This document shows, piece after piece, positions 8,501-50,657 of a DNA stretch of 64,000 nt. Every line of letters starts with the position of its first letter. The first letter of the stretch is position 1. The stretch covers positions 109,231-173,230 of the forward strand of contig DAOPYQ010000005.1 in the NCBI GenBank assembly GCA_035352955.1, in the 5' to 3' direction. This DNA is from Candidatus Omnitrophota bacterium. Lineage in GTDB: Bacteria; Omnitrophota; Omnitrophia; Omnitrophales; Aquincolibacteriaceae. The notes below the pieces were generated by a model. That model saw only the letters and a list, made by a program, of their open reading frames with translations. It made no database searches and was not told where the DNA came from. A program made the translations under genes and the position numbers.

Positions 8501-11500
8501 TACGCCTTACCGGCACAAAGAAACCGCGCCGGGCCCAAGGGATCGTTTTCTTAAAAAGCTTCAGGACCGCGCGAAGGTCGTCCATATTCTCCGCGGTCAC
8601 GATATTCGCCTCCCCGCCGCGCAGTTTTAATTGAATGACCCTCGGCGACGATTCTCCGGCCTTCGGCGGAAGCTCTGCTTCGATCTCAACGGAGTTTTCG
8701 TCATCGCTTTTTTCGGGCATCGCATAACCCAGCTCCGTGACCGCCAGAGCCACGCCATTCAAGATATCCAGATCGCGCAACGCCTTTTGGCAATTGGATT
8801 TGATCTCATCTGCAAAATAAGGCTCCTCTTCGTCCGGAATTTCTATTTCCGGGAAGAACCGGTTAACACCAAGTTTCTGCGAAATATCGCGAAGATCCTT
8901 CAATCGCTTCAGGATCTCCCTACCATCCGCCAACGATTCGATGGGGGTGGGCCTACGGCTCTGTTTTGAAAGGTCATCTTTTTTAAGTAATATAAAATGG
9001 TCATCTTTTTTGAGCAATGCCATGAACTCCCCGAGCTTGCGACGAAGCTCTTTCATGGCGGGAAGCCCCATTTTTCCCCGGAACGCTTGTACTTGTTCGA
9101 TCAACTCCTTAACCTTGATGTTCCTATAACGCTGGGCCGATAAGTACGCAATCCCGCCGAAAAAGGGGTCCTCGAAAGGCGAACCGAATCTCTCAGGACT
9201 GTAACTGTGAAAAGCAAAGTAACTTTCAGGAATGATCCCGTGGCCATGTAAAAGCGAATAGAATTTCGCGTCCGATTCACCACCGGGATCGAACCGGTTC
9301 CCTTGGGGCCTGATCTCCGGCAACGGCCCGGCTTTTCCGTTTTGCACAAAATCACGAGCCGCATCGAAAATAGCCTGAAACTGTCCGTTATCTTTCAACA
9401 CCTCGCGCGCTTCCAGGATGGAATGATCGCGGACATCCGCATCCCCCGCCTGATAAGGCCCCTTCGTGTAAAAGAATTTCAATTCACCCTGTTTATCAAC
9501 CGAGGTCAGCATTTTTTCCGCTCGGACAGGATTGTCAAATTCCTGCCGAAGCGATCCTTGCGCACTGGGCGCAAGGGCCGCCCGGACCTTCGCAGAAACC
9601 GAAGGATCGGCGAGCAATTGATCGACCGCTTCATGATGATGCGTCGCCGTGATCACGGAAGCACCCATTTCGATCGCTTTTTTGGAGCCTTGAAGAAACG
9701 CTTCTTCCGTCGCAAAAACTTCGTCGTGGATGAATAACGTATTGCGGCTCGCGTTATTGAGCCCGGCATCTTCGCCGGGACCGCGCGCGACAATATCCTC
9801 AAACCAGCTCGTCTCCAGAGGCGAAGGCACATACATCCCGAGACGCGCCATCACGGCGTACAGGGCGGCCCCCTTCAACAGAGTGGATTTCCCGGAGGCG
9901 TTGGGGCCCAACAAAGCCAGGAACGGCTTTTCGTTGGAAAGACGAAGATCATTGGGAACAAGTTCCGCCTTCACTTTAGCCGCATCTTCTCCCCGCTCCT
10001 CACCATCTTTAAGGCCAAGATAGGGATAAGTCAGCTGCGGCGCGTGGAAAGATCCCGGCTCGTCGATAAAAACCGGCCGTTGCCAGTTCTTCCGAACGGC
10101 CAGATCCGCCATGATCCAATAGAAATAAAGCTCGTCCGTGAAATTCTTGAGAAGAACTTCCATATCCGAATCGTTCTCAAGCGGTTCTGCCGCGAGCAGT
10201 TGCCCGAAACGGGTCCTGATGCGTTGATAGGCCGGCCCATCGAGTCCTTGCAGTAGGTTCCGGTTGTCGCGAATAACTTTCAGGACATCTTTCACATGAG
10301 ATTTATATCTGTTGTCAGGGAACTCTTCCCTATGCCTACCATATCTCCGCTTCGCGTTTAGGAACGGACGCGCGAAATAAAGATCTGTCAAAAAAGCCTG
10401 AAAGCGTTCGGAAAATTGCCGGTCAGAGCGGACTTTCCCTGCCATTTCTTCAATGGCGTCCAACCGTTCGAGCACCCGTTCGTGGCCCGGAAGCCGCTCG
10501 CTCGTGAGCATCTCGACATAACGGTAGAACGGATAACGGTATACTACTTCCCAATGTTCGATATCGGGATCGAGCGCTTTGACCCACTTTGAGAATTTGA
10601 TCCCAAGGAACTTCAAGAGACCGGAGGCCACCTTCTTCGCCAAAACAGGCTCGCCCGGTTTCGGGCTTTCCCGCATCTCAGAGCGAACGGTAGAAAGTTC
10701 TGCTGGGGTCTGAAGTTGAGAGATCAGGTCGCGGCTTTCGTAGACTCTATCCTGGCGCCAGACAAGTTCATCCTTGCGCCGATACAATTCCGTTTCCTGC
10801 TTGCGGAGTTCTTCAAGCACTCGCTCCTCGCGTTCCGCGGGATCCGCGCCACCGGCCCATTCCCAGAACCCGCGGTCTTTCAACGTGTAGACGCTGACGC
10901 CGGGCTCTTCAAGAAGCCTGATCCGCTCCCAAAGCGCCGAAAGTTCTTTCGCGAGAGAATCCAGCCCCTGTTTCACCAGTGACTCTTCGCGGTCGAGTTC
11001 TGAATTGAGCTGTTTGGCGTTGAAGGTTTCTCCTCTCTTTGCCCGCTCCTGCAGAGAATGCGGCCAATTCTGCGAGATTTGGAAAAAGCCCATAACCTTA
11101 TCAATAACATCGGGATTTACCTTCGAGAATTCCGCGAACCGTTCTATAGACAGTTCCGGACCGAGCAATCTCTGAACATGCCCGCGCTTTTGAATAAAAG
11201 CTCGAGCATCCCTGAAAATATGCGGTACCATTTCATCAAACAGCCGCCAGTCAAAACGTTGGATCCCAAAATAATCGTCGATCTGTCCCTGAAGTTCATT
11301 CACAAAGTCAAAACTGGCCTCCATGACACCCGGACCCATTCCGGAGAATCTGGAAACAATGTCACCAAGCGAGGCGGGACCGGAGAGCATTCCTTGAAGC
11401 ATGAATCCGCCAAACATCTGCATAAACCCGCGACGGCCCATCATGAGCCTGAGAGAATCCGCGGCAAAATCCTTGAGCCGGAGGATAGAGTCAACCGTCT

Positions 11501-14500
11501 CGCCCGTTTTCCTGCGAGATGTCCCGTAATTATCTTGCAGGGTTTCAAACACGAACGCCGCATTGGCTCCCTTGTAATCCCGGCAACGGTCGAAGAAGAT
11601 ATTCACGAGCTCTTCCCAGGTCAGCACTCCCGTCTTCTCCTTCTTTTTCCGTCCCTCCTCCATCGCCGTACGCGCTGCTTGATCGATCATCTTCTCGATC
11701 TCAAAAGAGACCGCCCCGTTTCCAACCGCGGAGGTTGGAAATGGTTCCCGCATCTCGGATCGGACGTGGTCATCAGGACCACGCCGAAGCTGTGCCGACG
11801 CAATAGGCGTCGGTGCGGAGCGCTTAAGATCCAGGATGTTCAAACGGTTGATCGTCATTCCAAAACGAAGATCCGTACTCTTTCTAACGGAGACCTCAAC
11901 TCCGCCTCGCGCGGCCAACCGGGTGATCTCACCAATGGCTGTTTCATCTTTCACCGCAAGATTGGAGAGGATCATGGTCGCCCGGTCCTTCATCGTATCG
12001 GTGATCTTTTTGATAAATGCCGCTTTCTGACTCTCCGGCACCGCGTCAAAAACATTGAGCAGCACATAGAAGCTATACGCGTTTTCGGGCAATTCTTCCT
12101 TTTCGAGAGAACGGAGCGTATCCGTAAAATGAATCCGATCGCCCACAAGGTCCTGACCAAAACGTCTTTGAATTCTTTCGACCGTCATCCGGTTCATCAA
12201 CTTGAGAACCTGGACATGGGAGGGATTCGGCTGGTTGATATCGACATGACTTTGATTCAAAGCGAACGGCGTCACGAATGCGTCTTCTACGCTGATCCCG
12301 ACCGCCAGCACGCGGTCTTCCGGCCCGGGACGAAGCGAATCGATGAACTCCGCAGCGCGAACCGCCTCTTCCGGCATCGATAGCTCGCGATAAACTTGCC
12401 CCGCCGTCATTTCACTCATCCCCCGCCGTTCCGCGCGATCATCCTCACCCACTTCGGAGACCGGGTCTCCGAAGCGGTCTCGGGCGCGGAGGACCGACTC
12501 GATCCCCTCATCGAGTTCGCGGACCTCCATGGCGAGAAGGTTTCTCTTGTGCTTCACGGCATCCTTCCTCCGATAGAAGTCCCTGCCCCATTTTCCGCGG
12601 AAAAAAACGCTTGCGTCGGAAATCGCGGAGCCCCGGTCCTTAAAAACACGCCGCAGAAAATCCATGTAGGGATCCTCCCCGGGACGATCCGCCCATCGGC
12701 TGAGAATCCGGAGGCTCGTTTTGTAAACGGGCAGCGGATTTTTTAGCGCGATCTCCAGCGCGGTCACAAGCATCCGTCCAAGCAGTTCCCCCGCCGCCTG
12801 TTTCCGCGGGCGATCGGTCTCCGCAGCGGCCACTTTGTCGGCATCCCGCACGAGGATCGAAACGATCCAGCTAAAAAGACCGGCGTCCCCGACCGAAAGG
12901 AAGAACCGGGCCACAAACCAGAAATTGCGCCGGATCTCCGGATCATCGAGATGCCCCATGATCACCTGGACCGGCGCGTAGATCCGCCGGGCATCTTTCG
13001 CGAACCGTCCGGCCTCGCCATACTTCTTCTTCCGCCTGCCCTCGGCATCTTTCTGGCGCTTCAAAAACTCCCGTATCACGGCAACGGCCTCATCCTTCCC
13101 GGTTTGGGCCACCCGCATAAACCCCTTGATCTCGTCGAAATATTTTTTATATTCCGGAGAACTGGCTTTTTTGTCGAGATCTACTTCGGCCTCATCTTCC
13201 TTCGAGAGCCCCTTTTCGCCGCGCCCTGTGCTGCGGCGCTCCGCGCGGTTAGCCACGGCTTCGCGCACCGAAGGCGGCATGATCGCCAGAAGCCCGAAAA
13301 CAACATCCTTCCCGTCGAATGAAAGAATCAACTGCCCGGGATCCCTCAGCCATCCGAAAGCCGCTCTGTCATCGTCAAGAGAAAGGTAAACAAATTCGAA
13401 AAAAAGGATCTTCAGGTCGTCCGAGGCGGCGGGACGGGTAGCCAGAGCGACGTCAAACGCCCGTCCCCGCGCCGCGGCATGGGACATCTCGCGATCCAGA
13501 AAGCGAAAGCGGCAATATTTCACGTGATAAACCTTCAGAAGCTCCAGAAGCCCTTCCGCAAGAGCGAACCTCTTTTCGATCTCGGCCAACGCCCGGTCGA
13601 TCTTTTCCCGGTTCCGGCGGACCGCCACAACAGGCCCCCGTTCCTTATCATGGGACAAGCGCACCAATTCTCTCGCAAGATCGTGGATCGGGACAATCTC
13701 GGGCTCGGAGATAAGCCAGGAAAATGAGGAAAGCCACCATGCGTTGGTCGAAAACTGCTGGTACTTTTTCTCCTCTGAAAGTTCCTGCCGCAGAAGATCG
13801 ATCTTCTCGCGGATCTCCTTGTTTCTCTTGGCGGCAAGTTCCAGCATGTCCCTCGCCCGGACCGACCTCACGCGTTCGACGATCCAGCGAACGTCCGGAT
13901 GTTCTTTCATCCGGGCAAATTCCGTTTCATAAACATGAAGTTGCTTCCGGAACAGATTCCACCAGGTTTCCGACTGCCACGGTTTTTGGGTCGGCCCGCG
14001 CCACACGAACCACGGCTTTTTCGGGTCCTTCTCATGAGCGTACTCCGCGACGCCCGCCTGAAGCGGCACGTAAAGAACATTGCGAAGTTCGCTTCCGGAT
14101 CTTTTTTCCATCGCCGGACGCCCCGCACCCGGTCCCTGCTGGCGAAGCTCGTGACGGCCCCTCACATTCCTCCAGGGATCATGAACCGGCGTCTTGGCTG
14201 CCAAAGCCCGCGCTCTCAGGAACTGATCCATACCGGACCAGGACTCGGGACGAATTTCCCCGAGCAATCCTCGCAGTTTTCCTAAAAACGGTTTCGGATA
14301 AACTTCGACGATATCGGGAATAGACGGATTTTCTGTCGCAAAAAGACGCCCGGGAGAGTCGCCGCTAAAAAAAACGCATCGATACCCCCCGATATCTCCG
14401 TAAGGCTTGACCTCAACCTTGACCCTCGTTTGGCCGCTGGCGGGATCTTTGAAAAAAACGTGCCACACAGCGTCATCCCTGGTTTCAGGCATCCTTGCAT

Positions 14501-17500
14501 CGTTCACCTCAAGCTTCATGCCCTTGGCGGACGCCACTTTTTCAAACTCCATACGGGGTTCCTTGGGCAAAGGTTTATTGCCAAGCTGGTGTTCCCACTC
14601 TTTTCTCCTATTCACCCGGTCCTCCCAGGCCCGATCAAGCGCGAACAAGACCACGAAAAACGAGGAAAGAAACGATACCTGCCGCACAAATTCCAGCGTG
14701 ACGTGCGGAAGCCTGAAATGCCCTTCCATGTAGACCCAAAAGGGATACCCGAACATGTACAACGCCGCAATGCCGCCGAGGATCAGGCAGGACTTGATCC
14801 AGATACTGCCGGTGCGCGAAGACGCACTAACGGAACCCTCCGGACCTCCCTGCCGAAGTTCCATGCGAGCAAGCGTTCCGAACATCGCGTTAACCTTCTT
14901 TTCCGCATCCCTGGCGTTCTCATAATCCGGCGACGGGACCAATAGCTGGGCCTGCAGGGCCTTTTTGATGATGGTCTCGACGTAGGAAGGCTCCCCTTTT
15001 TTGGAGCTAAACACCATTCGGAAATAATCTTTCGAAACCTGCCGCGGAAGCCCCCGTCTCCGGCCATCCGATCCGAACACGTCTTTGATATCGGAAACCG
15101 GAAAAGCCCTCCCGCTCAAAAGGATCGCCAGTTCATTGAGAAAATCGTCCCACCGGCGAAGGCGAAGGAGGGCAAGGACAAAAACAAGTTGTTGCCCGGA
15201 GATCATCTGGGTGTCCGGAGTGTAAAGCTGGATCCCTGTCAGAGCCCGCGCCATCCACCCAAGGACTTCTCCCGTTTGCGCATGAAGCCCCATCGCTTCC
15301 AGACGGAGCAGGAGCGCCCGGCATTTATTGAACGCATTCCAATAGGCGAGCGATCTTTCCTCGACACCAACCACCGCCGCCGCCATCCGCAGATCGCGTT
15401 CCGTCATCTCCAGTTCATCGATCACGCGTTTTCTCAGGGACTTGTAACGGAGGATGATCTGCTTTTTCATTATTTGGGCAAGATGGGCCCGGTAAACTTC
15501 CGCTTTCATCAACCCGGCGCTGTTTTTCTCGAATTCCTTGAAGAAATCAAGATTGATCTGCTGCCGCGCGGCTTCAGTCGCCTTAAAAATATAGTCCGGG
15601 TCCTTCCCGCGGTATCTTTCGAGCATCCGCCGGTGCTGGATCACCCATCGCTGTCCCGTGCGCAGCGAAACCGCGAGCTTTTTGATATCCTCCGGATTCT
15701 TTTCGTCCAAGGAATCCAGATAAGCGCTCGTATAATTGAACGCGTTGATCTGACGTTCGCTCTGAAGGACCCGGGCGACATTCCGTCCGGCATCCGCGAT
15801 AAAAAACGGCAGTGTCGCCTCACAAACCAGCACCACGGCATACTTGTCGAAATGCTCCATATCCGCCCGCAGTTCTTCATCGTGCAACTTGTCGGCCTGA
15901 GCTACCAGCAGATCGCGCGCCGCCCGGATCTTCCGGATCCAGGAAGGATCCATGGGAAGATTCGGATTTGTTTTATCCGCCATCGCATCATGCATGGCCT
16001 TGTATTTCGCGACCGCCGACGGACTCCCGAATGCAATCCCCTTATTGGCAAGGCGGCCCGTAGCCTCTGCGCGCGTATGGTAAGAAACATCCTTCCGCGC
16101 GATCTCAAGCGGAGGCTGGAGCGCCATGATCAAGGCATAGAACCTGGAAAAACAGACCTCCAGATCGGTGCTGAGAAAGAAGAGCATCAACCCGTAAAAG
16201 TCGGCGGAGGCCTTGGCCGTTCCCGGCCCCCGTTTGATCCCCACAAGAAGCTTGCCCAGCTGCGGGTCCCAATGGCCCAACCTCCGGCGCAACGATTCGA
16301 CGCCCTCTTTTTTAAGGATGTCCCTACAGAAATCAATGAAGGGCCCGGTCCCGCTAAAATCACCGGCGATGCGTTCGAAAAAAAGCTCGAAAAGCGGTTT
16401 GTAAAACACCTCCCCGTATAAAGAAGGATGGTCCATGATCACGGAAAGGAACGATTCTTCGCCCGAGGAACCGCCTTCTCTCAGGGAATTCTTGAAACGA
16501 AAAATAAAATTCCAAAGGTCCTCCGCCGCATGAACCGCCTTGGCCGTTTCATCGGGAAAGTGAACCGCGCCGTGAACATTTTCATAAGCCTGCAAGGTCT
16601 GCCGGAGATAAACGTCGATTTTTTCGATCAATCTTTTAATATCAAGGATTGCGGCCCGTTCCGTCCCGCCCCGGGAAAGATCTTCAAGAAAAGGCGCGAA
16701 TTCTTTTTTCACTTCCCCCCAGTCTTTCAAAAACCCCTTGAGATCCTCGATCCGGCTGTTCCGCAGAAAGAGCGTGAAAAAGATCGTGACATCCTGCAAC
16801 GACTCCCGGATCTTTAACGGATCACTGTTCCCCCGGGGCTTCAGATCACCCAAAAGCCTCGAAATCTCCTGGATCTGATCTTCAAGCCAGTCTAATTTCA
16901 TCTGCTCCGGGGATTGATACTCTCGCCTTTCCTTCAGCCGACCGGAAGTCCGGACCTCCGCGCGGCTCTCTCTTCGGGACTCGCTTTCCGCCGCCTTTGC
17001 GTAGGCCACGGAAACTTCTTGGGCGGTAGGAAGCGGCCCCTGTTTCTTTTCATGATCCGTCTTTATCGAAACCAGGGCAGCCTCAAGCGCCTGAAACCTT
17101 TGCCACGCCTGACCGATCTTTTCGATGAAAGCGTTACGGTTGGCTTCCGCTTCAGGGGCTTCAAACAAGACCTCGTAAATAAAATATTCCGCCTGCTGAA
17201 CACGGTCGAGCGCCGTCTCCTTCGTCGCGCCCGCTCCGGGATGAGGCACATTCACGGGCGTATGGATCCCGTGCTTCGCAAGCGCCTCCGCGATTTCTCC
17301 GTGCGACTCCAGGATCTCCCGGATCGCTTCCCAGGCGATCAGCGAGATCCGGAGGTCCACGCCGTTCCTGGTCTGGGCATACTCCGACATCGATTCGCTC
17401 AGGATCGTGGCCGGACCCCGGACATTGTGCGATACCCATGCCTCCCAACTGACCGGTTCAACCGTTTGGTACGAAGTCCCGTCGAGTCTCTTTTTTGCGA

Positions 17501-20500
17501 CCTTGCCCCACACCGTTTCCCGGCTCAGCGGGGTCAACTCCGCGAGCGGGACAAAGACCGCCCCAAAGTCACCCAGGAACTTCTCAAAATCAAGATAAGC
17601 CTCGATCGCAGCCGCGATCTTGGGCCAGGCGTTATAAATATCGAGAACGGCTTGCTTGAATTTTTCATAGTCGTTCCCCGGAAACGCACGGTCGGAATTA
17701 AACGCGAGATTCATAAGGTACGGGGTCAGGTCCCCGTAAGGCACGATGTCGGTTTCGCGGTACTTCTGCAAAACGGAGGCGCGTGACCTGAAATCCAGAT
17801 TCAAAACGTCCCGGAGCCTGGGCTCAACCTCGGTCTGTTTCTTGCGGATCGCGTCAAAATCTTCCCGTATATCCGCAAGCGTCTGTGATTTTGTTTTGGG
17901 CGACAAATATTCCAGCTCCTGCAACGCATAAAAGATCCTGTTTGTCCGGCTCGAATAGGTCCCCTTCCCGTGTTCCCAAAAAAGATCTCCCACATCCGGG
18001 AAAAACACCTTGCCGTCTTTTTCGGAAAGAACATCCCCACGGATACCGCTCAGGGCGCGGATCCGTTTCATTAATTCCACAAGATAATCCCACGCGCCTG
18101 AGGCTCGTTTAAAAAGGTCCGGCTCGTTCCAGTCCGGTTCGAGAATGAGCTCCGCGGATCGAAGTTCAGCCCTGTCGAGATCCGGTTTTAGATTGCCCAA
18201 CTCGAAAGCTTTGCTTTCTCCGGTGGCCGGAAAGTTGACCGGGGTCTCTGGTCTCTGGTCTGCGGTCTTAGTTTTCAACCGGTTCATGTGATGATGAAGA
18301 GCGACGTCGAAACTCTGGCGGACGAGGCGAACGTTCTTTATCGCCCCAACGCCAGGATCCGTCGCCACAGCTGAGGCAAGCTCGTCTTCCAGAACTTTGC
18401 GAGTCCCTCTCACCGCATCCGCAAAATCATCCGCATAGGCTGCTCCGTCGATCTTCGCAAGTAATGCTGGAAGGGTTGCCGACGATTGAATCTTCGCAAA
18501 CAGCTCGCTCACCCTCGGATAGAGAAGCGCTCCTTTTTTATCCTTTTCCCTCGCAAGGGCCGAGATGTGTCTCTCCATCCAAACGGCGAACGGCCGGACG
18601 GCGGGTGAAATGGCGGCGTGCTCTTTCTTTACGGGAACGAACGCGAACGCCTCGACCTCGACAAGCCAGTTCGGCCGGCACACGTCCCCGATAACATAAA
18701 TGATGGGAATATCGGGGAATTTCTTATCCACCGCTTCCTGGATAGCCGCCGCATCTTCGGGCCGTTTGATATAGACGCGCAGCTGCGGGATATCCTTGAG
18801 GTCGCCCATGCGCTGCGTGAGCATCATCCGCACGCTGTCGATCATGTAGAGGGTTTGACGGACCGGATCGCCGATGTACATCTCGGCCTGGCCCTTGGTC
18901 GAGGCCGTGCCGGAGATCAGGACCATTTCGTAACCGGGAGTCACAACCGACATCGCACGCGACCAAAGCGGCGGCTTTTTGGTCTCAAGCGCCTTTTCCT
19001 GAACAACGATCGTATATTCATCGGGGTTCATCTGCCGTGCGCTTTCAAGGCGGAGCGCGTGGACGTTGCTTTTTTTTGCGACAAAGGCGAGCGCCTCCAT
19101 CACGATAGAACCGCTCTTGTCACGTAGCGTCCCGATCCCGGTCGACGCGGGAGGTTTGCCCAGATTTCCACCTTTGATCAGCCCTTCCCCGAACGGGATC
19201 GATTTCCCGTTCATCGAGGTCATAAAGTAATCGTAGCGCGGATTATTGATTCCCCACTGGTAGTTCCATTTTCCCTCGGCATCGTAATCAACGATATGGT
19301 CCTGGTAGAACCAGGTGCGGAGCACTTGCCGGTAATCGAGAACAAAATCGGGGCCGACTTTATCAAGTTGCTTCAGCTTGGCTTCGGCTTTCTTCAATTC
19401 AAGGTAGGTCTTTTCGAGGACATTCCAACCGCGGTCGTAAGTTTTGGTGATCGAAGGATCGGGTGTGATGCCGCCGACATAAACCTGGAACAGATCCGCA
19501 TCCTCGAGGATCGCGCTGTGTTCGCTGATGCGGAGCACCTGGTTCGGCTCAGGGACATATCGACTTTCGTCATCCTGAGCGGAGCGAAGGATCTGAGATT
19601 CTTCACTCTCTCCACGTCGGGGCTCAGAATGACGGGACGAACCCATCGCCACGATCTCGACTGTGAACATGCTTCCGTCAGCAGGAGTTTGTTCGAGATA
19701 CGTCGTGACCGGAGGCTCGACGCCCGTGCCGTAATATTCCCGCAGGGCTTTTTTGATCTTTTCGCGGTCCGCGTCCGTGATATCCCCGAACGAGATCACC
19801 TGTTTGAAGATGTCATCCTTCCTGATCTTCTGTTCCGCGATCAAACGGTCAAGATGCCCGATAACGCTTGCGATCTGTTCCTCCGCCGTCTTCCCTTCCG
19901 ACGGCATCACGGAGAAAAACACCTGCCGTTTCCCGTTCCCGAGTTCCACCGCCTTGGCGCGCGGCTCCATTTTGAGAAGTTCTTCATTGATCGCCTCACG
20001 GGACAGCAGAACCTCAGAGGCCACCCCGGTCGCGATCGCTGCGCCGGAAGACCGGACAGGTTCGCTGTTTCGAATTTCCGCCCGAGCCGGGATATCCTGC
20101 CGGGCAAGATCGTCGAGAGTCGGGACCACCGGAAGATCCTTTTTTTCGAAGCCCTGTGAAAAAGCACTCTGAAGGTCCTGTTGTGTCTTCGGGTCAAGCG
20201 AAAGGTCCTTCGGGAATCCGTGACGGACAAGGAAACGCGCGAGCCTCACCGCGTCAGCGTAAACCTTCCGGTAGTCCTGCGCCACGAGATGCTTCCCGGA
20301 TAAAATGGGCGTCAGAGAAAGCTTCTGTCCCGACTCGCCCGGAGAGACGATCCCCGCCAGGACGCCAAACCCATACTTGGGCGTTTTAATATCGGTATGG
20401 AGTCTGATCTTGTCGATCAGCGCGTGCTCCGGCCGGTACATCTGCGGGGAAGTTCCGATCGTAAGCGTGTCCCCCGCCACCCGCGCATTAAAAATAAATG

Positions 20501-23500
20501 TTCCGTTCCCGGCGGTCATCCCCCCGAGCGTCTTTTGGATCGCCTCGTCCCCCACAAGAGCTTTGTCCTGGTCATAGACCCGGACCTTCCGGAATCCGCC
20601 CCGAAGATCTGCGCTCCGCCACAGGCCGGGGATCTGCAGGAAAAGAGAGATCACGGCATCCACTTTGCTCGCGGGAGTCACCGTACTTTCCTCGGGAGAT
20701 CCGATCCAGACATCCACGACCTCGACAACTTTTCTTCCAAATTTTCGCAGCCGGCTAAGAAGGTCCGTATCAAACGCAAAATCGACCGTGAAATCCGGGT
20801 CCAGGTTCCAGTCCTCGTCGACGGGTTGGATCTCGTCGAGGGCTTCGCGCGTGAACGCCTTGAATCCCTGCTGAGTGTCACGAATACGCCAGAAACCGAG
20901 AAGGACCTTCGTCAGCATGTTATAGATAAAACTGCCTCGCCGTTCCTCATCAAGGCGCCCGTAAACGATCGCTCCCTTGCGCCACCGCGAACCGATGGCG
21001 GCATCCGCTTCCCCGGAAGCAAGCTTCTCCAGCAAAAGCCCGGATTCCGCGAGCGACACGGCACGATCCATGTCCGTGAATATGAAATACTGTTTTAACG
21101 CCTTCAGGATTTCCATGAGCTTGCGGAACGCAAGGACAATCCCGCTCCCTTTTTTTCCGCCGATACCGTCGTTCTGGTCCTTATTCACGAACCAGACCTG
21201 CACCTGCCCGGACTTCAGCTTCTGGGGAAACATGTCCTTGAGGATCTCGAGCGCGACCTGGCCGGAGCTCTTTTCGCTCTTGATCTTTGGCTGCGGGACG
21301 TCCCCTTCAAGTTTTTTACTCTGGAGGAATCCGAGAACTTTTTTAAGCAACGGCCGGACCCAAAAAGTCAGGAAGGCTTTGTACCACTTCAAGAGAAAAG
21401 AGCCTTCTTTTCTCTCCGGCAAAAGGTTGAACCTCAGTTCGTCCGCCGGATTGCTCAGATCCATGGAGCGCTCGCCGTCATCGGCCAGCAAAAGAACGTA
21501 CCGGACATTCGAATTGACGGAAAAAAGTTCGTCAAGCTCCCGGATCTTCCAGACAAGCGCGTCCTCGCCGTTCGGATTCTTTTCCGCCGAGAACGGCCGC
21601 AGGCGGTTCTGTTCCCCGTACATCGAAACGGCAATGCCGACCTCGATGGGGTCGCCGGTGCGCGGCAAGCGGTAAACCGCCAGGAAAGACCGGATCAGCC
21701 GTTCGGCTTCCGGCAAAAGATCATGGAGCTCGGCGTCCTGCGCGAGCATGCCGTCCAGCATCGCGGCGCTCTCATCAGCACGGGGACCTTTGAGAAGCGT
21801 CGAAAGCGCGGCCGAGATCACCGCCATGCGGTCTCTGGCCTTCTTCGTATCAAGCGGCCCGAGCCGGTCGGCGTGCCAATTCATCCTGAGGAAAAGCCCT
21901 GAGGCCAGCCGGTCGACCTCCCCAAGATAGCCGTCGCGCAGCGGGTTGTCCTTGATCCCGTTCTCGAGCATCTGCGAATCGGGCATGGCTTTTTCCATCA
22001 AATCAAGCGCGCCCTTCAAAATCGCGCGGGGCCGTTCGCCCTTGGCAAGGATTTCCACTTCTTCGTCATACCGGATCCCGAGCGACGCAAGCTGATTTGC
22101 GGAAGACATCATTTTCATCCCGCTGTCCCCTTTCCGGATAAAAAGATGGACCCCGGTTTTCGCCGTTATTTCCGACGCCAGATCGGCAAGGATCTTGCTC
22201 GGCCGGATATGGATATCATTTCCGTTCAAGACATGAAACGTCCGGCGCATCTCCGGCCAATTTTCTTCCAGGATCCCCCCGCCGAAAATGACCTGCGGAA
22301 ACCGGGGCGGGACCTCCGGCGTCCGGAGCTCGGAACGAGGGGTGACACGGAAAAACGTCTGGGGGGGGAATGTGAACCGGACCGTCGTCTTGTGCCCTCC
22401 GGTTCCCGGCGGCAAAAATTCCATTTTTCCGCCATGACCTTCGACCACGGCACGAACAAGGGCGATCCCTCCCCCATGAGATTTAAAACCAGCTCTCGGA
22501 AAAATGCCTTCTTTGACAGAATTCGGAACGATCGTAAATCGGCCCGCCGCGTCGATAACCTTGGAAATCCCCACGCCATCGTCATAAACTTCCCATAGGC
22601 CATCCCCATTTTCTGCTTTGCCCGCGCGAAATCCGATCAGACCCTGCTGACCGGCCTGAGCCTGGGCATTCAGCCCGTTGGCCGCCATCTCCCGAACGAT
22701 CCTGAGAGGCGTCCATTCACGGGTAAGCGCATCAGCTAAAATGATCTTCGCCATGGAATCTTCTTCCTCGTCCGGCAAAAGATCGGAAAGAGCTTTCCTC
22801 AGGCCGTCGTCAGACCATCTTTTTGTCCAAAAAACATTAAACTCCGTCTGGGTCTTCGCCACGAATTCATCGAGAAGTTTCGATAAACTTTCTTCCGTAT
22901 CCTGCAAGGTCGGCGCCGGCCGTGGCGATACCGTCTGATAGATCACTTCTTTCATTTCAACGGGGGGCTCTGCCTTTTTCCAGGGGACTTGCGGCCCGAG
23001 CTCTTCCAGTTTTGCTTCGACCTTTTCAAGAGATTGGAACGTAAACTTTTCTTGGGCACGGCCCTTCCCCTGCGTTGAAAGAACGAACTTTGTGCCCCAG
23101 AAGCCCCCGCGGGAAATGTCGATTTTGATCACAAACTCTTTTGCCGACCCCATCGACAACCGGAAAGGATCCTCGGGATTCCCTTTCTTCCTCTTCGTTT
23201 TGGCATCCTCGGGATCCTCCTGTTCACCGTCCCTCACCTTAGATTTTTCAATCGCGATTTCCTCGGGATCCTGCGAAGCTTTCCCCGTGAATTTAGCGAT
23301 ATGGGCATAATCAGGATGCACCGAAAGAAAAGAGAAAAGACCGGCCGCTTCGCTCTGGAACCCGGTGTTCAGCGTTATTTTGTAGACGTCCGTCAGCTGC
23401 CGGTCCGCCGCAGCGCCAAGCACGGAGCGAACGGATTCTTCATTCCCAAACCATTTCCAGAACCGCTTTGAGAGATCGGCTAGCGCTTCGGTCCACGAAA

Positions 23501-26500
23501 CCTCGGGCTGGGCCATTCCGGCCGAGAGGATCTTTTCAGTGCGGGCGCGATAATCTCTCATCATCTCCCGGCCCCGTGGCGTGTGCGCATAGACCTGTTC
23601 GGCCATCTCCATGGTAAGGATTTCGCCGATGATGTCGGCGATCCCCTCAAGCGACTCCTTCTCATGGGACCCTCTAACAAGGACTTTCACAATAGCCCCG
23701 GGGTCCGTGTTCAGATTAACCATTTCGGTGGTTTGTGCGATACCGATCTTTTTATGGGTCACCGGATCGACCAGCTGAACCTCGATGCCCGAAGGAGCGA
23801 ATACTGTTTCCCCAAGTTCTTTCAGCAGACCCGCCGCCGGCGGCATATGCCACCCCTCGGGCCCGACGGTAAAATCCCGCGCGATCTCGCGCTTTTCCGC
23901 GCGATCAGCCCCCGCCCCGGTTTCAAGACCCGGTTTTGACACGAGGGAATCTCGCTTTTCTTTCCGCGTATCCCAAAGATCTTTCGGCCAGAGTTTCAGA
24001 ACGCCCTCTTCCGGAGCCTCAAGGTAAAACCCGTCAGGCATCGTGGGCCAGACTTTTTCAGCCCCCACCATCCGGCGTAACAACCTGCTTACATCCTTCC
24101 TCGCAAAGTTGATCTTTCCGGACGTTCCCACTTGCAGGTTCACGGCCAGCGCCACCATGAGCCCCATCAATTGGGAAGTTTTAGTTTCACGGAAGCCGTA
24201 TAAACCCGCCTTTTCTCCGTTCTGGATCAGGAGCCGGTCGCGGGCGGTCCTCCATTTTTCTGAAAAAACGTCCAGACGCATGACGCTAATATACGGATGT
24301 CTTTCCGCTGCCGGCAACATCACAAGGGGCTTCCCCTCAAATTTCTTACGAAGCCCCGGCGGTAGCACAAGCACCGAATCCTTTGTGAGACGCACGAAAC
24401 CCTCCGTAGCCGGTGCGGCTTCCGGGAGCCGCTGAGACACCGCATCCGGGATCTCCTTGGAAACGGTTGTCTTCGCCGCCAACGATGCCGCTTCTAATTT
24501 TGCCGCAGCCTTCGGATCGATTTCACGGAGCCGGGCAATAAATTCCTCCCGGGTGCCGGGCTCCCCGAGCACCATCCATCCTAAAGCGATCTTTTCCTCA
24601 TCCGACAGCGGTCTCGACGCACGGACCTCCGAGCGGCCGAGCGCCCGGGGGTTTTTCACAGCGGCCAAAGCATTCCCCATCACCGTCTTTTCTTCGAACG
24701 GGACGCCCTGGATGAGGTCCCGGAAATCCCGGAAGAACTTCTGCCCGAGATGCATCATCGAGAACCGCGCGACCTTTCCGCGATAATCGCCGCCCAGGGC
24801 CCACGGCTCATAACGGATCGCGTTCTCGTCCAAAGCCCGTTCCGCCAGGCCGATATGCTTATCCGTCAGAAGCGTCAACGCCCGTCCGACGATCTCACCG
24901 GCCCCATCGTATTGGTAAGTCTTACGGAACTCGAGCCATTCGGTCTGGAGATCGTCCAGGTAACGGGCGTTCTCCGGGTCCGCCTCGAGACCTTTGAGAA
25001 GCGCGGGTCCATTCACATCGCTGACAGGATCACGGCGGTAACCTTTCCCATCGGGATCGCTCCATAATCCGATCCCCGTCCTTATGAACTCCTCTTTTCC
25101 GGTGCGCATGAGGATCTTCAAGGCTTCGGTATCCGTGATCGAAGCGATCCTGCCTTTTCCATCCTTCTTGAACGCCTTGGATTCAAGCCAAAGGAGATAC
25201 CCCTGATCAACGGGATTGGCCGCATAAAGGTTCAGCATCATCATCTCGCGGACGCCCGCGAAATAATCCCGGGGCAATGCCTTGAGGATTCCGAAGACCT
25301 TTTCGAACCTTTCACGGCCCTTCAAATAAGGAATGGCATCCACCGCGGCGCGAAGTTCTTCCGCAAGTCTGAAATAGAATTGCCCGCTTTTCAGGCTGTC
25401 TTGGCCATCTTCCAGGAGACGCGCGACAAGATCCATCGCTCTTTCATCGCCGAGTTCCGCGAGCGCGAGCAGTGCCGGTGGCATGATGGCCGCTTTGTTG
25501 CCGGCATGCCCGTTCAATTCGCTCCCGTCCCAATAAAGGACCGAACGCTGGTAATCCGCGTCAAAATCAACGGCTTTCCAGAGGACTTTCGTCGTCTTCG
25601 CATCCGAGATCCCGGAGATCCCAAGCGCCTCGATGGCTCTCGCCTTGATCCACCAATAGGTCGTCGCCTCCGGACCCGCTAGTTGCAGAAGCCGCTCATA
25701 GATGCGTTTGTCTTTTTTTGCCAGTTGACCGAGGCTTTTCGTGACCGTTTCGCCCAACTCGGCGAATGGCCGGTAAGCATCATCAAAACGCTGTTCTTTA
25801 TCCTGCGCGGCCCGCCATCCGGCGTTGGGGGAAAATCCGAGCAGCTCAAAGAGCCACGGCGCGTACTCCGCAAGCCCTTGCTCCCCCGCCATTTCGGCCG
25901 ACATCTTGATGAGCGGAATGGCCCATTGCACCGCCTGATCGCTGTAATAACTGCGAGAAAGCCCCTTCGGGATGATCTCAAACCAGTCGGAATCGAAGAC
26001 CCCGAACTTGTCCATGCCGTATTCCCTGGAAAGCGGCATGAAGGTCTCGATAATGAACTTCGCGACCTCCGGACGCGCCGGCATCAAAGCGCGGAGAGCG
26101 TAAAGGATCGGATCGCCATGGGCCTCGATGCTCGACATCTCCCGGCACATGAGAAGGAGCCGCATGAGCCGGAGGACCTCTTTGTAGATCTTCTGCCGGG
26201 GGACGGCGGGATTCAGACGCTCGGAGATCTTATCGAGATATTGTCCGAGACGGTTCATCCGGTTCAGGACCATCCGCTCAAGGCCCGCCTGTTTCGCGAT
26301 CTCTTTTTTGGGAAGATGCAGCGTAATGACCGTTCCGGGGACCAGCGTCTTGAAAACCCTGACGACTTGCGCGGAAAGAGGCATAAGTCCCGAGGCGCCC
26401 TCCAACAGCGCCCTTCCCCCCGGGGTCTCGCCTTCCGCTTTACGCGCGTCAAAGGCCTTGCGGCTTTCCCAGGAAATAATATATTTCTCGTGATTGGAAC

Positions 26501-29500
26501 TCCGGATAGCTTCTTCCACTTCGGCGGCCTCCCAAACCCCTGGCACGAACATGTCGATCAGGAACTCATCCTTCTTTTCACGCACGGAAAACTCCGCCTT
26601 ATTGGGAAAGGAATGGCTGACCGGGGAATAACGCTTGAAATAGATCGAGGCCAAGGCCGATACAAGCCCCTCGGTCAGATGGTAGTGGCCCACCGCTCCA
26701 AGCACCATGGTCAGGTCCGCGGATTCGGGGAACGGTCGGTGGACCTTCCCCCAAGTCGGTTCGATCTTGAGGATCCAGTCGAAGGGAGAGGCTTTCAGCG
26801 GGTGCGGATCCATGAAGTTATATTCAACATTCTGATGGAACTCATCGAACTGCTCGCGGAACTTTCTCCAGCAGTAGCCGAACGGGTCCCGCATGAACTC
26901 GTCGTATTCCGCGTACTCGGGATTATCGGGATCAAAAAAATCGTCAAACTCGGGGTTCCCCGTCGGATTGAAATCCGATGTACGCTTCCCCTTGTCGATA
27001 CCCTCACGGTCAAAACGCTCGCGGCGTTCCGGATCTCCCAGGATCTCGTAGGCGCGGGCGGCCTCCTTGAATTTTTCCGCGGCTTCGGCATCCCCGGGAT
27101 GCTTGTCCGGATGATACTGCATGGCTTTAGCACGATAGGCCCTCTTGATATCCGTTGCCGTCGCGTCCCTCGCGACCCCGAGGACCACGTAGGGGTCCCC
27201 CTCCCCGGTCCTCATCTCCGAACGGGCGGTCATGGGTTGGGCGTCGGCTTTCACGATGATGGCGCGGAAATCGTTGGAGTAAACTTTCACCGGTTCTTTA
27301 CTGGCAAAAAGCATTTCGTCCTGAAGAGGCTGCCCCAGCGCCTGCCGCGCCCGATCTTCCGAAGAAATAACTTTCTCGAATGCAAGTTTGGGAGGATGCC
27401 TGAGACTATAGCGATACAACGAAAGTTCCGGCATTCCGAAAACCACCGTCCCCCCTTCACGAAAATTAATCCCGTGATGATAGATCCGGGAAGCGAATCC
27501 TAAACTGATAAGGACAGGTTTGTGCCAGAGGTCTACAAGATCACCTCCGGTAGCTATGATCGCATGGTTCGGATCGACCCCATACCGGCGAAGGAACGCG
27601 TCCACGTCCAGCGCTCTGAACTTAAGCCTCTCGATGGCCTCGCCCTTAATGCTCTCCAGGTCGGAGGTATTGACCGGACCCACGATCCTTCCCGTAAAAC
27701 CCTCCGGCTTGGTACGCCCGATCGAGATCGGGATCCGGCAAAGAACATCTTCTTCCCGGAACTCCGGAAGAGGCTGATAGGTTTTTGAAAAATTCCCCGT
27801 GATCGGCCGGGATTGAACGACGGACAACTCCTCGTCTTTAAAGGCGAATTCCACATCCACGGGAAATCCGAGCGCCTCCTCGATCCCTACGACCACGGTC
27901 CTAAGTTTTTCGATCTCTTCCTTATTCAAAGGAGATAGATGTTTCGTCCTGTTCGCATCGACGATCGCAGACGTATGCTCGTCCCAAGTCTTGTTGATGA
28001 GTTCACGGATTGTCTGATCGGCGAACGAACCTTCTATTCGCAGATCCAATCCGCGCCATTGCATGCCCGCCCGGGGATTATGATTCCGGTCGTAACCTTG
28101 ATAGACCGCTTCGACCTTGCCCGTCTGGCGATCAAGATCGATAATGACATTCCTGCTTCCTGAAACCGCGTACCGTCCCTCGCCCACAACTGCCTCAATC
28201 GCCACATGCCCTTCCAGGTTCGAGAACGCGATCCCGGATTTTTCCGCCCAGATGTAATCCTGAAGAAAAACCGAATAAGCGACATTCTGGTACCGGTCTG
28301 TCACGGTATCGTGGGGCGACTGGAGGCTCGCATGCAAAGCCCAGAACTCCCGTGAGGGATCCGTCTCCCGGCTGATCCCGAAACCCGCCCAGCTCTGTTC
28401 AAAAGAGTCTTCCCCCTGGCGAGAAGAACGCCAGATCCTGAGCCTTCCCAACATCCGGGTCTTTTCGGCCCATGCCTGCCTAAGCTCTAAGGGAAGACTC
28501 TTGTAAAAGAGAAAATTCTCTACAGCATTTATAAAAGCAAGTTCCGCCTGATCAAAGGCAATACCGGATAGCAAGAGATCCTTTTCGTTCTTGCTATTTT
28601 TATACCTGAGAATATCCGGCGTTTCCCGGAGCCCGACAAAGAAATCTGTCCACTCCGCTTCCGTCCCGAAATTCAGGAAGGGTCTAAGATCGGTTTGTAA
28701 GACCCCCCGGATGGCTGAGCGAATTTTAGATTCATCCCCGGCAAGCTCACCGAAGACATCAGCAAAAAGAATGGAGGTCAAGTTTGGAACACCATAGAAT
28801 CCATCCTTCCTCGCTTTTTCAATAAGCCCCTGATTGATCTCTCTTTGTAGTTTTGAAAAGATGGCTCCAGGATTCATGCTTTTGTAACGTTCGTCGATCT
28901 CCCGTAGCAATTTTTCTTCAAAGAGCACGAACTTCGGGATCTTGAAACCGAGTTTTTCCGGAAGTCCCAGTTCCTGAAGAATCAAAAGCCATGCGGCCTT
29001 ACCGCCCCACAGTTTATTCAGTTCCGCGAACCGCGCCTTCACCGCTTCCGGACTCGCCCCTTCTCTCAGTTCCGAACGCGCGGATTCGGTCGATAGCGGA
29101 ATGGCGGCCAACATCGCGATCGTCCGAGTCCCGGGTTTTCCGGGAATATCTCTGCCGAGCCATCTGAGGTTTTCAAGCGTGGCGGCATCCAAAAGGACAG
29201 CCTCCGGAAAACCGTTTTCGATCAATACCCGCGCCACCGTGATCAGCTGGTCCCGGAACTGTGTTTTCTCGGCTTCATTCAAATCGGCACGTAACTTATA
29301 AACTATCGTCATGTTCTGGTCGGGCGCCGATGAGACGAACCCGAAAAGCGTTTTCCAGGAAGAACGTGGATCCCTGATATCAGAATGGGCTCCCACCCCA
29401 TTCATGATCGTCCCAAGATGTAAAACCCCTTCTTCGATCGCAACGTTAAAAAGAAGGCCTCCTCGCGCCACCTCGGCAACCTTGGCGCGAAATTCCGTCG

Positions 29501-32500
29501 CCGTTGCCGGTTTTCCATTGACCACAAAACCATTGACCGAAGACAACCGAAGGCCTTTTTGATCACATGCCGCGCGAATGCGTTCCTGGATACCGGGCAT
29601 CGCCTGTTCGATCTTGGCCCGGATCCCGGCATAAGGCTCGGCCGGCGGCGCGGGATAATCTTTCTCCGTATCAAAATCAAGGCCCGTGCTTCCGAGGATC
29701 AGCTGGATTTTTTTCGGATCGATCCGGAAAGTCTTCTGGATAAATTCACCGTGATGCCGTTGGGCGACCAAAATGAGGTCCGCCCAATCGACAAGTTCCT
29801 GGTCGATCTGTCGGCCTTCGCGGTTACGAAGAACGGGATGCCGTTCCCAGACCGGCGCTCCCAGCCCGAGCCTCGGCCGGACAAGCTGTGCGAGCGTCAT
29901 CTCATCCGCCCGGATCCCGGCGGAACGAACGCTGACTTTATCTTTAAGCTCCGCGGGCAACGCCTGCGCGATCAGATGCGCCGCCAGCGGCGACCGCTCC
30001 CGGTTCGCGTTGCAGACCGTGAGAACATTCAACTTTCCTTTCACGGTTGCGGCTAACGCTTTTTCGATCTCTCCTAATCGAACCTTATTCGTTAACTTCG
30101 CCGGAGTGATCCGCTCTCGCCCGTCTTTTGAATCCCTCCGCAACTCGGAACGGAGGGAGATGCCTTCTGCCCTGGCGATCGTTCTAATCCGGGCATGCAT
30201 AGCCTCCACATCCTTGGACGGCGGAGCCCCATGCTTCTTGCGGGCCCGAGACCTCGGGGCAACAAACCATTCGCCATAATCGGAAAGATCATAAGTCTGT
30301 TCGCGGAGGATCTCCTCCCCAAGGGAGAGAAGCTTCCACCAGGCGCCATCAAACGTTCTCTGAAAAAAATCGACGGCCAAAATATCTTCCGGACTCGTCC
30401 CGGCCAGGATTTTCTGAAGTGTCTCAATCCCGAAAGCGGAAGCTGGGGCTGTAAAAAAATCGCTCTGCCTGAAATGTTCCCCGATCGAACGCGAGATCAA
30501 GGCGTAAACATTTCGCGAGTAATTATCCCCGGGATCATTAAAGGGGGTCCGCGCCACCTTCCCGTTATAATCCGCGATCAGGGCCGCGATCGCGGGAGGA
30601 TCTTCCGCGGCGGCAAGAAAAGCCCTGGCGGCATCCGTTTTCCCCTTTCCCTTCCTGGCCTCCTTGAGAGCCCCCTGAAAGGTCTTTTCGATCTTCCGGA
30701 ACCAGTCATAACGGGCAAAAAACCAGCGCACCGCAAAAATCCGGTGCTCTCTTTGAAGTTCCGCCGTCTTGGTTGCGTAACGCTCAAAAAGCGCTGCCGG
30801 ATTGTCAGCTCCCCCGACATTCAACTCTTCGATCCGCAAGGCCATATCGATCAGACGGGCGAAGGCATCCGGAGACACGTTGAAATCTCCGTCACTCCGG
30901 CCCGCGAACGGACTCAGGGCAAATTCTTTTAAACCGTCCGTGATCATCACGGTCTTCCGATCCTGCTGCTCGCTGTCGGCGCGGACGAAAATCCGTGTCT
31001 GATCGAGCTGAAGACCATAAAAACCGGCGACTTGCTTCCAAGCCTCATCTATTTTCCGGAACCAATGCGCAAGGGACTGCGTTGCTTTCAGAGCATCGGA
31101 TTGGACCATAAACTCATCGAAATCAGTACGGGAGAAAGACGCTCTCGCCTCCCTGCGCACATCGACCCGTTCAAGACTTCGCGGAAGGAAAACTTCTTTG
31201 GGGTTTAGGGGATAGGGTTTAGGGGATAGATCTGTTTTTGCCAAGGTTGCTTTTCTATACCCTATACCCTCCACCCTATCCGCCAAAAAGTTTTCAGGCA
31301 CGCGCGCGCCCTCCCACATCGGAACAGCATACGGCGTCTGGTTGGCCGGTTGGCCGAGGAGCTTCGCGATATGGGCTTCGCTCAATTGACCGTTCTTGCT
31401 GAGAAACTGGAGTTTCCCGATGAACCGCTCAAGTATGGCGCTCCACTTTTCTTTGAGACCCTGGAATTCGGGCGACTGTTCCGCCGCGCACTGATCGATG
31501 TAACGGGTATATTTTGCATGGTCCGCAACGCGGCCCGAGGCGGCAAGATCACGAATCACTTCGTCGCGCCACTCTTTCAGGACCGAGCCACGGGCCACGG
31601 GCCACGGGCCACGACTTGTTTGCACGTCCGTTGCCAGCTTATCGCTCGTGGCGCGAGCGAAGGCGTCATAAAGATCGATCCGGCCGTCGCGCGGGCGGAA
31701 ATATTTCGCCCAGGAAACCTTGCCTCGCATGTGATCGAGATAGCGGCCGTCCTGCGGGACTTCTTTCATCGCGGGAGACACGACCGCGTACGGAATGCCT
31801 TGTGCTTTTAACTTTGACGCGAGGCCTGAGGTGTGGAAGCCGCCGGCAACGAAAATAACGGGGGAAGGATGGAGGATGAAGGATGGAGCTTTCACAAAAC
31901 TTTCGAGCTTGTTTAAAAAAACGGCTTCGCGATTCAGCGCAATTTTGTAGAAATCGAAAAAATCCGCCACGCGCGGTGAGCCTAAAAGAGCATTCATCTT
32001 TTGACTCATTTCACGGATCTCTTGATTTTTCACTCCATCCGCCATCCGCCATCCGCCATCCGGCTGAAAAGACTGCCATTCCTCCCTGCTCAATTCAAAC
32101 TTTATCAGCTTCTCCATGAGCCGTAAGCGCTCGTCCAATTCCGAAACAGCTTTCGCCTCCGCCGTCGTGAAAAGATTGGCCCGCACGGTTGCGAGAAACG
32201 CGTCGAATTCTTTCATGAAGGCCGGGCCTCTGAGATTTACGAGCTTTTCGTGGCGGGCAATTACCTGGGCCAATTGGGGAGAAATTTTGAAAGAACCGTC
32301 ATCCTGAGGCAAAGCCGAAGGATCTCTTTTTTGAGATTCTTCGCCCTTCGGGCTCAGAATGACGGCCTCATTTTTTAAAAACAGCGTTAGCTCGTACGCC
32401 AGCGCGCCTTTACTCATCCGGCCGGTGCGGGAGGCCTGCTTGAGGGCATTGAGCTTTGCCTTTGCGGGTCCGTCCTTCACGGCTTTTTCCGTCTGAATCG

Positions 32501-50476: not shown

Positions 50477-50565
50477 TCGACTCCCGACCGTAGCCATAGA
50501 CGATTTCATTGATCGTCATGGCGTTGTACTGAATTCTTGGAATTCAGTGCGAGAGGAGGGAGTCG
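50477..50565. repeat. 89-bp direct repeat copy A (overlaps the genuine 3' end of tRNA-Leu plus 71 nt downstream)
   Basis: See copy B. Confidence 0.7.
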
Positions 50566-50633
50566 AACCCTCATGGTGTTTGAGCACCGCTGGATTTTGA
50601 GTCCAGTACGTCTGCCAGTTCCGTCACTCTCGC
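50548..50633 (-). tRNA. tRNA-Leu (anticodon CAA), type II with long variable arm
   Basis: Reverse complement GCGAGAGTGACGGAACTGGCAGACGTACTGGACTCAAAATCCAGCGGTGCTCAAACACCATGAGGGTTCGACTCCCTCCTCTCGCA. It has a 7-bp acceptor stem, anticodon loop CUCAAAA, T-loop GGTTCGACTCC and discriminator A. CCA is not encoded. Confidence 0.85.
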
Positions 50634-50657
50634 AATTATACCGGAAAGGATAAAAAC

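Follow-up and report, generated by a model that had tools for sequence, protein, structure and literature searches.

The stretch of DNA analysed here, 64,000 nucleotides of contig DAOPYQ010000005.1 from a Candidatus Omnitrophota bacterium (hereafter the window), encodes a giant protein of 10,302 amino acids in one uninterrupted open reading frame (ORF), located at 2529..33437 on the minus strand. This protein carries an N-terminal signal-peptide-like segment together with LMWPc, PPDK_N, DnaJ, GHKL, HPr, glycosyltransferase family 2 (GT2), RidA-like and MutS_V P-loop domains, and all its features are given below in window positions, minus strand, or in its own residue numbers (aa). A first-pass annotation of the region 21993-22760, which corresponds to aa 3560-3815, had described a GHKL (HATPase_c) ATPase domain fused directly to an HPr-like phosphocarrier domain, and had proposed that the two form a self-contained Ser/His phospho-switch. 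In this paper, we examine the identities of the two domains, the segment that separates them and their occurrence in related proteins. We conclude with moderate confidence that the GHKL and HPr-like domains are autonomous modules, which became adjacent by shuffling or insertion and are not a dedicated kinase-substrate pair; their architecture is unique but probably incidental.

The GHKL unit has a size of about 190 residues, and consists of a helical N-terminal extension (22704..22907, aa 3511-3578), which is conserved in the family and contains one Trp and no His, and a catalytic core (22359..22703, aa 3579-3693) with an N box, a G1 box and a partly degenerate G2 box. When a 456-aa piece of the protein was searched against Pfam, the core matched HATPase_c (PF02518) at aa 3579-3693 with an E value of 8.8e-8 and 33.0 bits, versus a gathering threshold of 26.4, and this identity was weakly echoed by NCBIfam and PDB sequence searches, which pointed to the catalytic domains of KdpD, FixL and CreC. 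No member of the GHKL family departs from E3583 and N3587 in the N box or from D3619-G-x-G3623 in the G1 box; the G2 box, HGGGIAL (aa 3654-3660), is partly degenerate, as it is in some relatives. In an AlphaFold2 model of aa 3490-3850, the core has a predicted local distance difference test score (pLDDT) of 84-94. A Foldseek search of the GHKL part against the PDB returned histidine-kinase catalytic domains first (4i5s, EnvZ 4kp4 and CpxA 4biu), with RsbW and PDK as weak structural matches ranked behind them. With its N and G1 boxes intact, the unit probably binds ATP, and it would probably also hydrolyse it.

The best sequence and structure matches of the unit are therefore the catalytic domains of histidine kinases such as EnvZ, CpxA, FixL and KdpD, with which it shares the Bergerat fold, the N and G1 boxes and a C-terminal 'TTVR..FP' ending. 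Unlike histidine kinases, however, it is associated with no DHp/HisKA, acceptor histidine, sensor or receiver, it possesses a conserved N-terminal helical extension of its own, and its family forms a repeated cassette in giant proteins and is also fused to sugar-phosphate enzymes. The first-pass annotation had noted the lack of a HisKA/DHp or receiver domain between the two domains, and Pfam agreed on a larger scale, finding no HisKA/DHp anywhere in the giant protein and no receiver domain (Response_reg) in it or in the neighbouring genes. The N-terminal extension, aa 3511-3578, is not a DHp, because it contains no histidine: the ~70 residues upstream of the GHKL core are free of this residue, and the GHKL family has no conserved His there. 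The same annotation had compared the domain with GHKL serine kinases of the RsbW type. RsbW/SpoIIAB (HATPase_c_2) is likewise a small DHp-less GHKL protein, and like it the unit would need to find its substrate in a different domain. However, HATPase_c_2 (PF13581) was not matched in the GHKL region, where only PF02518 was reported at E values up to 0.1; no STAS domain (RsbV/SpoIIAA type) that might serve as substrate was found in the giant protein or the other genes of the window, and the HPr fold is unrelated to STAS. The RsbW analogy is thus weakened, because the GHKL unit is of the histidine-kinase catalytic-domain type. In one relative, designated P0017, HATPase_c_2 was detected below the threshold (20.5 bits versus 27.4).

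The HPr-like domain occupies 21993..22247 (aa 3731-3815), and the same 456-aa piece matched PTS-HPr (PF00381) with an E value of 1.8e-7 and 31.5 bits, versus a gathering threshold of 23; with both domains above their Pfam thresholds, the identities first assigned to them held. In NCBIfam its scores were below the cut-offs, being 23.9 versus 47.9 for TIGR01003 and 22.9 versus 110 for PRK13780, and the NCBIfam and PDB sequence searches weakly echoed an HPr identity through the HPr family and the HPr domain of DhaM. The domain has the HPr fold but is no equivalog of PtsH. In an alignment with the HPr proteins of E. coli and B. subtilis, H3743 (22209-22211), R3745 and S3779 (22101-22103) are in register with His15, Arg17 and Ser46, respectively, and P3746 corresponds to Pro18. 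The HPr-like family has six members, in each of which His15, Pro18 and Ser46 are kept and among which Arg17 varies, so that the phospho-site residues claimed earlier were retained on alignment. The fold itself was supported by structure prediction: the domain has a pLDDT of 88-96 in the AlphaFold2 models, the top 31 PDB matches of the didomain model in Foldseek were all HPr structures, and over the two models the template modelling (TM) scores to solved HPr structures were 0.65-0.88 with a root-mean-square deviation (rmsd) of 1.7-3.5 Å, the second model (aa 3716-4290) reaching a TM score of up to 0.88 at an rmsd of 1.7-2.4 Å. C-terminal to the fold lies a family-specific extension (21894..21992, aa 3816-3848; consensus 'MLEEG..ENPLYDAYL.EI'), the second half of which is a helix, and which is kept in six of six family members. 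The invariance of His15 and Ser46 in the aligned sequences suggests that the domain is probably phosphorylatable.

The domain thus shares with the HPr (PtsH, PF00381) of the phosphoenolpyruvate (PEP)-dependent phosphotransferase system (PTS) its fold (TM 0.7-0.88), a Pfam match above the gathering threshold, and His15, Arg17, Pro18 and Ser46 in register. It differs from PtsH in being embedded at residue ~3731 of 10,302 with its own C-terminal helix, in falling far below the NCBIfam HPr cut-offs, in residing in a host protein with a signal peptide, and in that no Enzyme I (EI), Enzyme II (EII) or HprK is encoded in the window or contained in the giant protein. As in HPr regulated by HprK/P, Ser46 and the surrounding 'M-[ST]-S' are conserved, but HprK/P is a P-loop kinase and not a GHKL protein, and none was found in the window. 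Known HPr fusions join HPr to other PTS domains, as in FPr and the EI-HPr-EIIA proteins (PMC2405797). The giant protein resembles such multiphosphoryl transfer proteins (FPr/FruB, DhaM and EI-HPr-EIIA) in that HPr is part of a larger protein and not a free polypeptide of ~88 aa, but its HPr is flanked by a GHKL ATPase and a GT2. Pfam detected no EIIA, EI or PEP-utilizers domain in the giant protein, only PPDK_N, which is located ~1,850 residues from the HPr, and a literature search retrieved no HPr fused to histidine kinases.

The two domains are indeed adjacent, as was first annotated, but they are not fused directly, since an inter-domain linker of ~37 residues (22248..22358, aa 3694-3730), predicted to be disordered (pLDDT 33-39), lies between them. 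This linker contains the pentapeptide RSELR (22323..22337, aa 3701-3705), 6-8 residues past the GHKL end and 25-30 before the HPr start. The pentapeptide conforms to a motif, R[SA]E[LMIVAT]R, of which the giant protein has 15 copies. Shuffled sequences contained a mean of 0.3 and a maximum of 2-3 copies, so that the motif is ~50-fold enriched. The copies, mostly RSEMR or RSELR, are located at 30138-30152, 29064-29078, 27210-27224, 24621-24635, 22323-22337, 20070-20084, 18159-18173, 16950-16964, 11748-11762, 10671-10685, 8085-8099, 7389-7403, 6084-6098, 5553-5567 and 3786-3800. None of them is straddled by a Pfam domain; all lie between recognisable domains, and DnaJ begins 9 residues past one copy. 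We therefore refer to the motif as a delimiter. Because the codons differ from copy to copy, what is under selection is the peptide, and an origin from a DNA-level repeat was rejected. The notion that the Met of RSEMR is a fossil start codon was also rejected, since Leu, Val, Ile, Ala and Thr substitute for it freely and other lineages use GARLA. Two of these delimiters bound a module (aa 2935-3701) in which GHKL is accompanied by a second, degenerate HPr-like domain (23628..23861, aa 3193-3270; 18.5-19.5 bits in Pfam, threshold 23), which keeps His15, has Pro in place of Arg17 and has lost Ser46. The relative P0002 likewise contains a second, sub-threshold HPr-like domain, at aa ~6305-6398.

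Equivalent motifs recur in the related proteins, where each is expected at most 0.2 times: RSE[AMT]R-type sequences occur 23 times in P0002, G[AT]RL[AS] 22 times in P0009 and 11 times in P0012, and G[AS]R[LF]A five times in P0017. Homologous GHKL units are flanked by the motif of their own host, i.e. RSExR in the giant protein, GARLA in P0009 and GTRL[AS] in P0012; the delimiter thus tracks the lineage and not the module. Candidate roles for these recurrent delimiters are those of polyprotein processing sites or of linker signals; the main text of two reports on such proteins (10.1101/2023.11.21.568195 and 10.64898/2026.06.07.730766) does not mention them. The library of representative proteins that we searched holds a version of the giant protein of 6,573 aa (P0001), which starts at Met3730 (22248-22250), one residue before the HPr-like domain. 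This version probably stems from a gene call made on a truncated contig, yet it starts exactly where the module does.

Whether the two domains travel together was addressed by an exhaustive phmmer search of aa 3500-3830 against 1.84 billion representative proteins, which returned 20 matches. One of these is the giant protein itself in a separate gene call and two are ordinary histidine kinases; five other proteins match the HPr half only, and 13 match the GHKL half only. No other protein among the 1.84 billion representatives matches both halves, so that the pairing is non-standard, as had been stated at the outset. Pfam searches of the relatives gave the same picture, namely HPr without HATPase_c and HATPase_c without HPr, and the GHKL-type relatives contain up to three GHKL copies per protein. 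Both units are bounded by delimiters elsewhere: the GHKL unit on both sides in P0009 (3671 and 3893) and P0012 (3789 and 4005) and upstream in P0017, and the HPr unit on both sides in P0002 (1292 and 1448), with a delimiter 6 residues upstream of it in P0006. By BLAST, P0006, a protein of 3,299 aa, is collinear with the giant protein and amounts to a 'mini' version of it, in which the N-terminal domain (giant aa 117-705) is followed directly by HPr, the ~3,000-residue stretch that holds LMWPc, PPDK_N, DnaJ, HEAT, the degenerate HPr and GHKL being absent. P0002 is collinear with the giant protein over aa 3696-4273, which comprise HPr and GT2 (35% identity over 294 aa), and the upstream neighbour of its HPr differs from that in the giant protein.

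The genomic surroundings of the relatives were consistent with these results. In six-frame hidden Markov model (HMM) searches, the surroundings of HPr at loci L003 and L004, out to 10 kb, were free of GHKL-family domains, none of the nine loci around giant or stand-alone members contained both families, and no GHKL-HPr or PTS linkage was seen near the stand-alone proteins P0004, P0005, P0007, P0008 and P0015. L003 belongs to a Candidatus Omnitrophota metagenome-assembled genome (MAG), has 44% identity in the HPr unit, and matches the P0002 member with the RSExR delimiter; the HPr-family alignment, when searched against metagenome contigs, recovered a single locus, identical to the genome-contig match. 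The non-giant proteins P0005, P0007 and P0008 (HPr) and P0015 (GHKL), encoded at loci L006-L009, end in a common C-terminal tail of the form '(P)GGID[LM][DN]P ... ~40 aa ... hydrophobic'. As this tail is found on HPr-only and GHKL-only proteins, both cassettes also circulate as separate proteins in another lineage. A region of P0009 (aa ~535-830), which by eye looked like an HPr-like fold beside an RsbW-like GHKL, was dismissed, since Pfam found nothing there. A word-index homology search with the didomain or the HPr-family alignment as query gave no matches, but it missed even the protein of the query itself and members of the alignment, and its negatives are uninformative.

On its C-terminal side, the HPr unit is followed by a structured helical connector (21648..21893, aa 3849-3930), in which pLDDT ranges from 62 to 93 with no stretch of three or more residues below 50, and then by a GT2 glycosyltransferase of the GT-A fold (20628..21647, aa ~3931-4270), which is collinear with the GT2 after HPr in P0002 and P0006. 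The closest structures to the GT2 in Foldseek are dolichyl-phosphate mannose synthase (5mlz) and ArnC, and its sequence weakly matches both AglJ and a dolichyl-phosphate hexose transferase, and also matches a GT2+GtrA homologue; from its sequence and predicted structure, it appears to be of the polyprenyl-phosphate type. The predicted TM score (pTM) is 0.69 for the HPr-GT2 model (aa 3716-4290) versus 0.55 for the GHKL-HPr didomain model (aa 3490-3850). A GT2 is located downstream of HPr in all three giant proteins (the one studied here, P0002 and P0006), although the spacing varies: a delimiter separates the two in P0002 and ~430 aa in P0006, and the giant protein has no delimiter between them.

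Taken together, these observations suggest that the giant protein is a 'beads-on-a-string' multi-enzyme protein, the modules of which have been shuffled or inserted in this lineage. GHKL closes the module aa 2935-3701 and HPr opens the next one, the HPr unit being, in the predicted models, structurally continuous with the helical connector and the GT2. As regards the biochemical activities, we infer that the HPr-like unit could serve as a phosphorylatable carrier or regulatory domain for the region downstream of it. Several points weigh against this explanation. HPr-like folds occur on both sides of GHKL, if the degenerate copy at aa 3193-3270 is counted, which is slightly above chance expectation; the invariance of His15 and Ser46 throughout the HPr family requires some kinase or phosphodonor; and a tethered ATP-binding domain ~35 residues away is physically able to reach the HPr. 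Furthermore, the relatives are few (five of the HPr type and 13 of the GHKL type) and the word-index search was blind, so that rare didomain relatives may have escaped notice.

The explanation closest to the original proposal is that the GHKL kinase phosphorylates His15 or Ser46 of the tethered HPr, in cis or between copies of the protein, as a PTS-independent switch that could control the downstream GT2. The intact N and G1 boxes, the conservation of His15 and Ser46 and the presence of Arg17 would all suit such a switch, as would the need of a DHp-less GHKL for an external acceptor, the encounter permitted by a flexible tether of ~35 residues, the absence of EI, HprK or any other PTS gene from the window, and the degenerate HPr-like fold in the module of GHKL itself. 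We nevertheless consider it quite improbable, because the adjacency is kept in no relative examined, each unit is elsewhere an autonomous delimiter-bounded module, and the GHKL family is fused to unrelated enzymes, in up to three copies per protein, with no HPr. In addition, the GHKL is of the histidine-kinase and not of the RsbW type, and the pTM of the didomain is only 0.55. To our knowledge, no histidine-kinase catalytic domain phosphorylates an HPr fold, which also counts against the switch. Its self-contained character, as first proposed, is not supported, given the disordered, delimiter-bearing linker and the relatives, in which each unit stands alone and none has the pair. A bolder form of the same idea, which we regard as very unlikely, would make the orphan GHKL a new HPr kinase that transfers phosphate from ATP to His15/Ser46 in an EI- and HprK-independent relay within an exported giant protein; this relay might gate the GT2, and the degenerate HPr would be a remnant of the pairing.

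Two other explanations were considered. The HPr-like domain may be no phosphocarrier; it would then act as an adaptor, with a binding or regulatory role, for the helices and the GT2 downstream of it, and GHKL would be irrelevant to it; HPr is known to bind glycogen phosphorylase and Rsd, which offers an analogy. Such an adaptor would suit the conserved helix that always follows HPr, the GT2 downstream of it in all three giant proteins, the structured connector with a pTM of 0.69, and the NCBIfam score below the HPr-family cut-off (23.9 versus 47.9). The N-terminal signal peptide in the giant protein and several relatives would, moreover, place HPr outside the cytoplasm, away from ATP and PEP. 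The invariance of His15 and Ser46 in all six members (Arg17 varies) is, however, hard to explain without phosphorylation, and the splitting of HPr and GT2 by a delimiter in P0002 and by ~430 aa in P0006 also speaks against this role, which we find unlikely. More plausible, though still doubtful, is that the giant protein is a polyprotein, in which cleavage at R[SA]E[LMIVAT]R, e.g. at RSELR 3701-3705, would free a piece ending with GHKL and a piece starting with HPr. This would refine the shuffled-module explanation and does not contradict it. The motif is strongly enriched, always lies between domains and, in the case of RSELR, falls in a linker predicted to be disordered; like a protease site, it goes with the lineage and is independent of the module, and different copies use different codons. 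Cleavage of giant proteins of this kind was already suspected by West-Roberts et al., who had no 'cleavage points' for them (10.1101/2023.11.21.568195). On the other hand, no peptidase domain was found in the giant protein by Pfam, the motif could just as well serve as a linker, in docking or in a secretion pause, and the giant protein lacks the delimiter that P0002 has between HPr and GT2.

The shuffled-module explanation is in line with what has been reported for the giant proteins of Omnitrophota, among the commonest domains of which are HATPase_c, PPDK_N, HEAT and glycosyltransferases; among 779 proteins that have 10,000 aa or more and are Pfam-positive, 136 contain PF02518 (10.1101/2023.11.21.568195; 10.64898/2026.06.07.730766). 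Since HATPase_c is so common in these proteins, a GHKL neighbour is unsurprising, and HPr is not mentioned in the main text of either report. The giant ORF fits the known Omnitrophota-type giant multi-enzyme proteins, i.e. the 'Archaeovorin'-type proteins (West-Roberts 2023) and the 'class 1 multi-enzyme metabolic clusters' (2026 preprint): it is longer than 10,000 aa, tiles many unrelated Pfam domains, among them HATPase_c, PPDK_N, HEAT and GT, and its nearest source-named relative is a Candidatus Omnitrophota MAG. It differs from them in being at the small end of the size range with few hydrophobic segments, and in giving no Pfam match to SecA_DEAD or C39, whereas the proteins of West-Roberts have SecA_DEAD, a C39 peptidase and numerous transmembrane helices.

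The remaining Pfam domains of the giant protein are a low-molecular-weight phosphatase (LMWPc, aa 1138-1248), a PPDK_N ATP-grasp domain (aa 1637-1888), DnaJ (aa 2081-2143), RidA/L-PSP (aa ~4837-4933) and a MutS_V-type P-loop (aa ~7842-7891), in addition to a weak match to HEAT_2. PPDK_N usually phosphorylates a swivelling His domain, and as Pfam found none in the giant protein, PPDK_N is another conceivable phosphodonor for the His of the HPr-like domain. The signal-peptide-like segment (aa 22-40, 33318-33374) has a positive N-terminus and a hydrophobic core followed by 'AQGLAQ|S', and it is one of only three hydrophobic regions in a simple hydropathy scan, the others being at aa ~6212-6235 and ~6845. 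Similar signal-like N-terminal peptides are found in the relatives P0003, P0005, P0006, P0012 and P0017. Read literally, this N-terminus would make DnaJ, PPDK_N, GHKL, HPr and the MutS-like P-loop extracytoplasmic. The region aa ~4243-4330 (~20448-20711) gave weak whole-sequence matches (E ~6e-6) to PDB entries of tethered-dimer HIV-1 protease with no single stretch passing, and we judge a protease-like assignment to be spurious, as the region has no D-T/S-G motif; it is a conserved domain of unknown function, common to P0006 (aa 830-999).

The neighbours of the giant ORF in the window include UvrC, MurJ, HolA, LptE, a BamD-like TPR protein, ComEC, LeuRS, MnmA and RsmH, and no PTS genes, EI and HprK included, are among them. 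This is the ordinary chromosomal housekeeping gene content of a diderm bacterium, as LptE, BamD-like and MurJ indicate. All large annotated ORFs of the window (1-64000) are on the minus strand and the GC skew is negative in every 2-kb bin; genes for tRNA-Leu(CAA) and tRNA-Ala(GGC) are located at 50547-50633 and 50657-50731 on the minus strand, between LeuRS and YdjC.

A functional GHKL-HPr pairing would mean that phospho-HPr can arise by a third route, next to those through Enzyme I and HprK/P, and that a histidine-kinase catalytic domain can act on an HPr fold, which would be a first; the evidence points in the opposite direction. What does emerge is a small, previously undescribed HPr-like family with intact phospho-sites and a signature C-terminal helix, which resides in signal-peptide-bearing giant or large proteins instead of a PTS. 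The delimiter may hold more interest than the pairing itself, as a lineage-specific motif at module boundaries offers a concrete set of candidate processing sites for giant proteins.

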